Below, one piece after another: positions 17,101-20,100 of a stretch of 64,000 nucleotides of DNA (position 1 is its first letter; each line of letters begins with the position of its first letter). The stretch is taken from NCBI RefSeq assembly GCF_003018255.1, contig NZ_CP027440.1, one strand, 5' to 3'. The position numbers were made by a program. This DNA comes from Escherichia coli (GTDB lineage Bacteria > Pseudomonadota > Gammaproteobacteria > Enterobacterales > Enterobacteriaceae).

Positions 17101-20100
17101 AGGAGTGCGCATGTGGGATGTCATTGATTTATCGCGCTGGCAGTTTGCACTGACCGCGCTGTATCACTTTTTATTTGTACCCCTTACCCTGGGGCTGATT
17201 TTTTTGCTGGCTATCATGGAAACCATTTACGTGGTCACCGGCAAAACAATCTACCGCGATATGACGCGCTTCTGGGGTAAGCTCTTCGGTATCAACTTTG
17301 CTCTTGGCGTGGCTACCGGCCTGACCATGGAGTTTCAGTTTGGTACTAACTGGTCATTCTATTCCAACTATGTGGGCGATATTTTTGGCGCACCGCTGGC
17401 GATGGAAGCATTAATGGCCTTCTTCCTCGAATCCACCTTTGTCGGGCTGTTCTTCTTCGGCTGGCAGCGGCTGAATAAATACCAGCACCTGCTGGTGACG
17501 TGGCTGGTGGCGTTCGGTTCAAATCTCTCTGCATTGTGGATATTGAATGCCAACGGTTGGATGCAATACCCGACCGGTGCGCATTTTGATATCGACACCC
17601 TGCGTATGGAGATGACCAGTTTCAGCGAGTTGGTCTTTAACCCGGTCAGCCAGGTGAAATTTGTGCACACCGTAATGGCGGGCTACGTGACCGGGGCCAT
17701 GTTTATTATGGCGATCAGCGCCTGGTATTTACTGCGCGGACGGGAGCGCGATGTTGCATTACGCTCGTTTGCCATCGGTTCCGTCTTCGGTACTCTGGCG
17801 ATTATCGGCACGCTGCAACTCGGAGACAGTTCTGCGTATGAAGTCGCGCAAGTACAACCGGTAAAACTGGCGGCGATGGAAGGGGAGTGGCAAACGGAAC
17901 CTGCACCTGCACCGTTCCATGTGGTTGCCTGGCCGGAACAGGATCAAGAGCGTAACGCCTTTGCTATCAAAATTCCCGCGCTGCTAGGGATCCTCGCCAC
18001 TCACTCATTAGATAAACCCGTGCCGGGTCTGAAGAATTTGATGGCTGAAACCTACCCACGCTTGCAACGCGGACGTATGGCCTGGCTGTTAATGCAGGAA
18101 ATATCGCAAGGCAATCGAGAGCCGCATGTGTTGCAGGCATTCCGGGAGCTGGAAGGCGACCTGGGCTACGGCATGTTGCTCTCCCGCTATGCGCCGGATA
18201 TGAATCATGTCACAGCCGCACAGTACCAGGCGGCGATGCGTGGCGCGATACCTCAGGTTGCGCCGGTATTCTGGAGTTTCCGCATCATGGTGGGCTGTGG
18301 TTCCCTGCTGCTACTGGTGATGCTGATTGCGCTTGTCCAGACGCTGCGTGGCAAAATCGACCAGCATCGCTGGGTGCTGAAAATGGCGCTCTGGAGTTTG
18401 CCGCTGCCGTGGATTGCGATTGAAGCCGGGTGGTTTATGACCGAGTTTGGTCGTCAGCCGTGGGCGATACAGGACATCTTACCGACATACTCCGCGCACT
18501 CCGCCTTAACCACAGGACAACTGGCTTTCTCACTGATCATGATCGTAGGGCTTTACACCCTGTTCTTAATCGCCGAAGTCTACCTGATGCAGAAATATGC
18601 CCGTCTGGGGCCGAGCGCGATGCAGAGTGAACAACCGACGCAGCAACAGGGGTAAAGGAGAAAATCATGTTTGATTATGAAACATTGCGCTTCATCTGGT
18701 GGCTGCTGATTGGCGTGATCCTGGTGGTCTTTATGATATCCGACGGATTTGACATGGGGATCGGCTGTCTGCTGCCGCTGGTGGCGCGTAATGATGATGA
18801 ACGTCGGATAGTGATAAACAGCGTTGGCGCGCACTGGGAAGGCAATCAGGTCTGGTTAATCCTCGCAGGTGGCGCATTATTTGCCGCCTGGCCCAGAGTG
18901 TATGCAGCGGCGTTTTCCGGCTTTTATGTGGCGATGATTCTGGTGCTGTGCTCGCTGTTCTTCCGCCCGCTGGCCTTTGATTATCGCGGAAAAATCGCCG
19001 ATGCACGCTGGCGTAAAATGTGGGATGCCGGACTGGTCATCGGCAGTCTGGTGCCGCCGGTAGTCTTCGGTATCGCCTTCGGCAACTTGCTGCTCGGCGT
19101 GCCGTTTGCCTTCACACCGCAATTACGCGTGGAATATCTCGGCAGTTTTTGGCAACTGCTGACGCCATTCCCTTTATTGTGCGGATTGCTCAGCCTTGGG
19201 ATGGTGATTTTGCAAGGTGGCGTCTGGTTACAACTGAAAACTGTTGGTGTGATTCATCTGCGTTCACAGCTGGCGACTAAACGCGCTGCACTACTGGTGA
19301 TGCTGTGCTTTTTGCTGGCGGGTTACTGGCTGTGGGTCGGTATTGATGGCTTTGTACTGCTCGCCCAGGATGCTAACGGTCCTTCCAATCCGTTAATGAA
19401 ACTGGTGGCAGTGCTACCTGGTGCCTGGATGAATAATTTCGTCGAATCGCCCGTTTTGTGGATCTTCCCGCTGCTGGGGTTCTTCTGCCCATTGCTGACG
19501 GTGATGGCGATTTATCGTGGTCGCCCGGGTTGGGGATTTTTGATGGCGTCATTGATGCAATTTGGCGTGATTTTCACGGCAGGCATCACGCTGTTCCCCT
19601 TTGTCATGCCGTCAAGCGTGAGTCCGATCTCCAGCCTGACGTTGTGGGACAGCACTTCCAGTCAGCTGACGCTGAGCATTATGTTGGTAATCGTGCTGAT
19701 ATTTTTGCCCATTGTGTTGCTCTACACTCTCTGGAGCTACTACAAAATGTGGGGGCGCATGACGACAGAAACTCTCCGCCGTAACGAAAACGAGCTGTAC
19801 TAAGGAGCAGGAACAATGTGGTATTTACTTTGGTTCGTCGGCATTTTGTTGATGTGTTCGCTCTCCACCCTTGTGTTGGTATGGCTGGACCCGCGTCTGA
19901 AAAGTTAACGAACGTAAGCCTGATGTGGCGCATTAGCATCTCATCAGGCAATCAATAATGTCAGATATGAAAAGCGGAAACATATCGATGAAAGCGATCT
20001 TAATCCCATTTTTATCTCTTCTGATTCCGTTAACCCCGCAATCTGCATTCGCTCAGAGTGAGCCGGAGCTGAAGCTGGAAAGTGTGGTGATTGTCAGTCG

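Follow-up and report, generated by a model that had tools for sequence, protein, structure and literature searches.

The closest described counterparts of the three short genes considered here, appX (cbdX), gnsA and ymdF, are their namesakes in Escherichia coli K-12. AppX was found by mass spectrometry (MS) and, in the cryo-EM structure of cytochrome bd-II, is a single membrane-buried helix touching transmembrane (TM) helices 1, 5 and 6 of AppC; it stabilises heme binding (hemes b595 and d) and is where two heterotrimers chiefly touch (PMC8585947). By MS and cryo-EM, the same work established AppX as a physical subunit of bd-II for the K-12/BW25113 protein, which is identical to the one encoded here, and genetic work treats AppX as a paralogue of CydX (PMC6005532), the small subunit of cytochrome bd-I.

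For GnsA, a passage in a bioRxiv preprint (10.1101/2024.03.27.586906, citing Sugai 2001 and Rock 1996) states that gnsA or gnsB in multicopy brings back 16:1 and 18:1 fatty acids and relieves the cold-sensitive growth defect. According to the literature, over-expression of GnsB has the same effect on unsaturated fatty acids as that of GnsA. Finally, deletion of ymdF leads to less biofilm biomass and to about 100-fold more killing by H2O2, and ymdF and PA2146 of Pseudomonas aeruginosa cross-complement in biofilm phenotypes (PMC9262955). The Salmonella orthologue of YmdF is sigma-S-dependent, has been seen by LC-MS and is grouped with YciG (PMC5437024, PMC7161692), a YmdF paralogue classified as a hydrophilin (PMC5437024).

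We analysed a 64,000-nucleotide stretch of an E. coli chromosome (hereafter the window), the K-12 counterpart of which runs from sulA to pgaC with identical synteny. Coordinates, identities, starts, annotation status and allele patterns come from our own analysis, and structures and phenotypes from the literature; we infer, in addition, that gnsA is translationally coupled and that YmdF has a protective role of the hydrophilin type.

Identity of appX, gnsA and ymdF

The three ORFs, which an original prediction had named from the DNA sequence as appX, gnsA and ymdF, are translated without internal stops at the positions given there (Table 1), and their products are 100% identical to K-12 proteins b4592, b4517 and b4518, respectively, the K-12 proteins being the comparison that the prediction had proposed. 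At the nucleotide level, appX does not differ from K-12 (0 differences), gnsA differs once (nucleotide 45) and ymdF three times (nucleotides 102, 144 and 159), all these differences being synonymous and at third codon positions. For all three proteins, family-model scores exceed the curated cut-offs. The start contexts, which had been called plausible, each include a Shine-Dalgarno motif located 6-8 nt before the start codon. Together with matches in the Protein Data Bank (PDB) and a published protein mass (see below), these results bear out the gene names.

The loci are found in nearly all complete E. coli genomes: 5,418 of 5,426 for appX, 5,414 for gnsA and 5,416 for ymdF. We regard it as almost certain that these ORFs are true genes for small proteins and belong to the core chromosome of E. 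coli, all three having been characterised before. The identifications are correct, and the genes are already known and ordinary. Their discovery value is thus small, as all three are included in the curated K-12 reference annotation; in addition, structures of AppX and GnsA have been solved, and YmdF has been weighed intact and has known knockout phenotypes.

Table 1. Positions in the window of the small genes, their neighbours and associated signals
Feature	Position	Strand	Description and basis
appB, cytochrome bd-II subunit II	18667..19803	+	Directly upstream of appX; 378-aa ORF; annotated in RefSeq and K-12
Shine-Dalgarno of appX	19802..19807	+	AAGGAG; 8-nt spacer to ATG; read from sequence
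appX (cbdX) CDS	19816..19908	+	30 aa, ATG start; translation; MWYLLWFVGILLMCSLSTLVLVWLDPRLKS
cspA-type RNA thermoregulator	29903..30325		cspG-ymcF-ymcE-gnsA transcript
ymcF	30282..30470		62 aa, ATT start
ymcE	30445..30675	+	76 aa; PF15939, 185.7 bits; annotated in K-12 and RefSeq
Hairpin and T-run	30475..30493		Just after ymcF
Shine-Dalgarno-like motif of gnsA	30654..30658	+	AGAGG; 6-nt spacer; within 3' end of ymcE; read from sequence
gnsA CDS	30665..30838	+	57 aa, GTG start; maximal ORF; translation
Shine-Dalgarno of ymdF	45495..45499	+	GGAGG; 6-nt spacer to ATG; read from sequence
ymdF CDS	45506..45679	+	57 aa, ATG start; two KGG repeats; translation
Direct repeats in ymdF	45563..45648 (at 45563 and 45629)	+	Two perfect 20-nt copies of GAAGCAGGTAAAAAAGGTGG; string search
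Candidate terminator of ymdF	45734..45754	+	GC-rich hairpin then T-run, 55 nt after stop; consensus scan, pattern match only
ymdG	56371..56397	+	8 codons (MKNSVAEH), between putA and putP; exact match to K-12 b4737

In the case of appX, the likeness to the K-12 gene extends to its surroundings. The operon order is appC-appB-appX-appA, and appX, which is found directly downstream of the subunit II gene as expected of a CbdX gene in a bd-II operon, starts 12 nt after appB and ends 79 nt before appA. Both the 30-aa sequence and the nucleotide sequence are those of K-12, as is the position relative to appB and appA, whereas two bases upstream of appX differ, one of them in the stretch that separates the Shine-Dalgarno motif from the ATG. 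This motif overlaps the stop codon of appB (TAA, 19801..19803). In O157:H7, appX carries two synonymous changes, at nucleotides 81 (CGT to CGA) and 82 (CTG to TTG), and its product has the same protein accession (WP_000270305.1).

AppX reaches 80.8 bits against the NCBIfam equivalog model for CbdX (NF011333, cut-off 57), covering positions 1-30 of 30, and 45.4 bits against Pfam PF08173 (YbgT_YccB, cut-off 26.2). With 30 residues and a GRAVY of +1.31, it has the character of a single hydrophobic TM helix of about 30 residues, and it is identical over its whole length to chain C of PDB 7OSE and chain X of 7OY2, two bd-II structures obtained by cryo-EM. CydX (YbgT; PDB 6RKO chain X) shares PF08173 with AppX, and both proteins are single TM helices occupying an equivalent place on subunit I. 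However, AppX scores 18.9 bits against the CydX model TIGR02106, under its cut-off of 31.6, and matches the 6RKO chain X sequence weakly (E = 0.009); CydX is longer (37 aa as compared to 30), and the leucines through which AppX makes the bd-II dimer contact are replaced by Phe, Ala or Ile in CydX. Judged by its sequence, the ORF at 19816 is the bd-II paralogue and not CydX.

By extension from the K-12 structures, appX would be translated from the appC-appB-appX-appA transcript, using the Shine-Dalgarno motif that overlaps the appB stop. The helix of AppX would then pack on AppC helices 1, 5 and 6, probably stabilising the four-helix bundles that hold hemes b595 and d, and would form the contact that joins two bd-II heterotrimers.

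gnsA at the end of the cspG cluster

The GnsA protein encoded in the window is the same as that of K-12, with the same GTG start and in the same context (cspG-ymcF-ymcE-gnsA-yccM). Beside it, YmcE carries an L67S substitution relative to K-12. GnsA is also identical to the crystallised protein of PDB 4XO1 and 4XO2, and scores 119.4 bits against Pfam PF08178 (gathering score 27), covering positions 2-54 of 54. The family also includes GnsB (YdfY), which has the same length and is 65-67% identical to GnsA; it is carried by lambdoid prophages and phages (7 Escherichia phage records), whereas the gene in the window is the chromosomal paralogue.

The start of gnsA and the end of ymcE share 11 nt, so that the two genes could be translationally coupled, and such coupling is probable in our view. 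A scan of the cspG-gnsA cluster with the sigma-70 consensus gave matches no better than those in shuffled sequence. gnsA closes the cold-shock cluster cspG-ymcF-ymcE-gnsA, with its GTG located 11 nt inside ymcE, and would yield a soluble protein of 57 residues which, when over-expressed, is expected to raise the proportion of unsaturated fatty acids. This rise would account for the suppression of fabA6(Ts), cold-sensitive secG-null and (p)ppGpp-deficient fadR mutants.

Databases point to another function, namely that GnsA serves mainly as toxin in a type II toxin-antitoxin (TA) pair, with YmcE as antitoxin, rather than a regulator of membrane lipids. Pfam titles PF08178 "GnsA/GnsB toxin" and PF15939 "YmcE putative antitoxin", the product name given by PGAP is "GnsA/GnsB family addiction module toxin", and one modelling paper places ymcE-gnsA among the type II TA systems of E. 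coli (PMC8484670). The layout is also that of a TA pair: ymcE and gnsA are two small genes of one operon, overlapping as in many TA operons, and GnsB paralogues are present in lambdoid phages. However, the documented phenotypes consist of growth rescue and not of growth arrest. YmcE is a "putative" antitoxin in Pfam itself and matches no Pfam family beyond its own, a PADLOC search with GnsA and YmcE returned no significant defence-system match (the best one for GnsA having E = 0.017), and in the modelling paper the expression dynamics of ymcE-gnsA made it an outlier when set against other TA pairs (PMC8484670). Thus, as support for the TA function comes from database labels while the reported phenotypes are of growth rescue, gnsA should not be filed as a proven TA toxin, and we think it unlikely that toxicity is its main role. 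Lipid regulation is, in our ranking, the better supported function of GnsA.

In some strains, gnsA has lost one nucleotide in a run of seven A (A7) and is flagged as frameshifted by PGAP. Such frameshifted copies occur alongside an intact ymcE, an observation that speaks neither for nor against addiction.

Start site, alleles and relatives of ymdF

The ymdF gene is found between wrbA and rutG, as in K-12 (b4518, UniProt P56614), and encodes the same 57-aa protein, although the spacer between ymdF and rutG is 83 nt long in the window as compared to 257 nt in K-12. A sigma-70 consensus scan upstream of ymdF performed no better than on shuffled sequence.

Its start codon deserves attention, as the frame is open further upstream, up to an ATG at 45476, so that a list of longest ORFs contains a 67-aa ORF (45476..45679) at this place. 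If YmdF were truly 67 aa long, the 57-aa call would be a truncation. The upstream site does offer two consecutive ATG codons, and the suffix of the K-12 accession (NP_415525.2) shows that this record has been revised at some time. Yet no Shine-Dalgarno motif could be read upstream of 45476, while GGAGG precedes 45506 by 6 nt, and both the K-12 and PGAP annotations give 57 aa. The decisive evidence is a mass. Top-down MS detected intact YmdF, with Met removed, at 5748.73 Da (PMC5594050), and our computed monoisotopic mass is likewise 5748.73 Da for the 57-aa form after loss of Met, as compared to 6962-7093 Da for the 67-aa form. As the published mass exactly equals that of the shorter form, the start is at 45506 and the one at 45476 is ruled out; we therefore reject the 67-aa protein as highly improbable.

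YmdF scores 67 bits against Pfam PF10685 (KGG, gathering score 20.4), in two stretches, and a PDB search with its sequence returned no match. Its sequence fits the hydrophilin class: 12 of the 57 residues are glycine (21%), and its GRAVY is -1.71. Described relatives include YciG of E. coli and Salmonella and PA2146 of P. aeruginosa, which according to published work share KGG repeats, small size and sigma-S control with YmdF; they are, however, paralogues or orthologues located at other loci, and YciG has an additional Walker-like motif (PMC9262955). In our reading, ymdF would be a monocistronic gene, sigma-S-dependent as in the literature, and its product a very hydrophilic, glycine-rich general stress protein that accumulates in stationary-phase and biofilm cells. 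YmdF would contribute to the architecture of biofilms and help cells to tolerate peroxide and antibiotics, and a protective role of the hydrophilin type is probable.

Each of the two 20-nt direct repeats (Table 1) encodes EAGKKGG, the core of one KGG unit. About 350 genomes (~6%), including O157:H7, carry a shorter ymdF of 108 nt, the 35-aa product of which retains a single KGG unit. Alignment with O157:H7 strain DEC4E shows that this allele results from an in-frame deletion of 66 bp between the repeats at 45563 and 45629. As gnsA is frameshifted in some lineages and ymdF lacks one repeat in ~6% of genomes, neither gene is indispensable in its full-length form.

A wider proposal would tie several of these features together. 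In this proposal, gnsA is mainly the translationally coupled last cistron of a cold-induced cspG-ymcF-ymcE-gnsA transcript, read-through being gated by the hairpin and T-run found just after ymcF, and GnsA acts as a cold-shock effector that raises membrane unsaturation, and not as a TA toxin. Separately, recurrent frameshifts in the A7 tract of gnsA and the repeat-mediated collapse of ymdF from 57 to 35 aa would represent a lineage-specific tuning of stress proteins. As a joint statement we consider this proposal doubtful, and offer it as speculation.

Short open frames, length filters and annotation

Short open frames are abundant around the three genes: when considering ORFs of at least 20 aa, 10 overlap the neighbourhood of appX, 30 that of gnsA and 14 that of ymdF (each neighbourhood spanning 0.5-1.2 kb). 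A length of 30-57 codons is thus not significant by itself, and significance comes from homology and from the substitution pattern. The hypothesis that the three frames are open by chance, or that they are non-coding and merely resemble K-12 genes, could invoke this abundance, as well as antisense ORFs as long as or longer than the genes that they overlap (90 aa at 19679..19951 for appX and 57 aa at 30680..30853 for gnsA), but the antisense ORFs are all unannotated in RefSeq, curated models score the three proteins far above their cut-offs, substitutions are exclusively synonymous and Shine-Dalgarno motifs are correctly spaced, and we reject it as next to inconceivable on the identity to K-12 and PDB proteins and on the mass of YmdF, the products having been purified and solved (AppX and GnsA) or weighed intact (YmdF).

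The original prediction had also stated that the three genes fall below the threshold of an ORF track and that automated annotation would miss them. The first statement is true of appX and gnsA, the maximal ORFs of which are shorter than 60 aa, but not of ymdF, as its 67-aa open frame exceeds the 60-aa threshold; ymdF is absent from the track, as had been said, only in the sense that the ORF with the correct start (45506) is not listed. The second statement finds no support for the RefSeq pipeline. For each gene, we sampled 40 records in even steps from the top to the bottom of the ranked E. coli genomes with a match (about 5,415). PGAP calls cbdX in 39 of the 40 sampled genomes (the remaining one has a truncated match of 52 nt), and gnsA and ymdF in 40 of 40 each. 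Of the two approaches compared, PGAP and a bare length filter, the missed-gene claim thus holds for the latter alone and, even there, only for appX and gnsA. For an ab initio gene finder such as Prodigal, whose minimum length is 90 nt, the 93-nt appX would be a borderline case and ymdG would be out of reach. As pipelines such as PGAP recover small genes via curated family models, absence from an ORF track should not be taken to mean that a gene is unannotated.

Furthermore, the list of small genes, the members of which are correctly named, is incomplete, as ymdG is a fourth annotated gene below the threshold. A literature search for ymdG and ymcF returned unrelated matches only (the tyrosinase peptide YMDG and acronyms of COVID programmes), and the ribosome-profiling discovery paper was not among them. 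As ymcF begins with ATT, ORF callers that accept ATG, GTG and TTG cannot place its start. The lesson of the window is therefore one of method: a length-filtered ORF track conceals appX and gnsA and gives ymdF the wrong start, while ymcF appears in it only from a wrong start and the eight codons of ymdG can never be shown.

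Small genes and their alleles

The original prediction listed appX, gnsA and ymdF as small genes below the threshold of the ORF track. A fourth annotated gene under that threshold, ymdG, lies between putA and putP and had been left off; it is identical to b4737 of K-12.

Two of these genes have altered alleles in other strains. Close to its 5' end, gnsA has an A7 run (30682..30688) that is A6 in strain 105 (L005:401-573, the aligned locus carrying the gnsA frameshift), and TW14588 and TW10573 likewise give this 173-nt match. The slip from A7 to A6 results in a frameshifted gnsA pseudogene and leaves ymcE intact. 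Similarly, a ymdF allele of only 35 aa (window 45563..45648; L006:401-508, the aligned O157:H7 locus) is found in O157:H7 and in about 350 of 5,416 genomes. This short allele originated when 66 bp were lost in frame between a pair of perfect 20-nt direct repeats, so that two KGG units became one.

Upstream of appX, the appB segment 19074..19393 holds, within 320 bp, 11 differences from the closest of the 5,426 complete genomes, with which the identity is 99.3%; 10 of them are at third codon positions. The window thus has a mosaic or recombinant appB allele, with no exact counterpart among these 5,426 genomes. For the gnsA region, in contrast, two strains match the window at 100% identity.

Features located in the window
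Feature	Position	Strand	Description
cspA thermoregulator	29903..30325	+	Rfam match, 155 bits; spans cspG 5' UTR and coding start
ymcF	30282..30470	+	'cold shock small protein' of 62 aa with four Cys; PF23641, 164.6 bits
GC-rich hairpin, 7 bp, with T-run	30475..30493	both	5 nt past ymcF stop, within ymcE coding region
naRNA4, two in tandem	41007..41186	-	Rfam, 79.6 and 76.5 bits; torD-cbpM intergenic region; REP-derived nucleoid-associated RNA
ymdG	56371..56397	+	8 codons, MKNSVAEH
efeU	58721..59560	+	Intact ORF, 279 codons
phoH ORF	62513..63436	+	
Ysr251 ('Yersinia sRNA 251', antisense)	63238..63431	-	Rfam, 190.8 bits; antisense to phoH 3' end

The cspG-ymcF-ymcE-gnsA cluster and Rfam matches

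The match to the cspA thermoregulator puts a cold-responsive leader upstream of gnsA. Within the cluster, ymcF starts with an ATT codon, in line with the K-12 annotation, and differs from K-12 ymcF by Q3P; the mechanical ORF list contains it solely as an 86-aa ORF starting at TTG 30210. The hairpin that follows ymcF may act as an internal terminator or attenuator separating cspG-ymcF from ymcE-gnsA. Elsewhere in the window, Rfam matches were obtained for naRNA4 and Ysr251, the score of the latter possibly reflecting just the conserved phoH coding sequence.

Gene content relative to K-12 and FDAARGOS_536

K-12 carries an IS1D between gfcA and cspH, while in the window this target site is empty, with just one copy of gacaatacg (29145..29153), so that the region upstream of the gfc capsule cluster is uninterrupted; the B2-type FDAARGOS_536 is devoid of the entire etk-gfc block. 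The gene yccE, which occupies 1.26 kb between cbpA and agp in K-12, is missing from the window (42476..43009). The cbpA-agp spacer measures 535 bp there, as it does in FDAARGOS_536; in that strain a partial remnant of 102 nt is marked by PGAP. Finally, efeU is intact in the window but a pseudogene in the K-12 annotation, and an offset of 1 nt between the K-12 and the window alignments is consistent with this.
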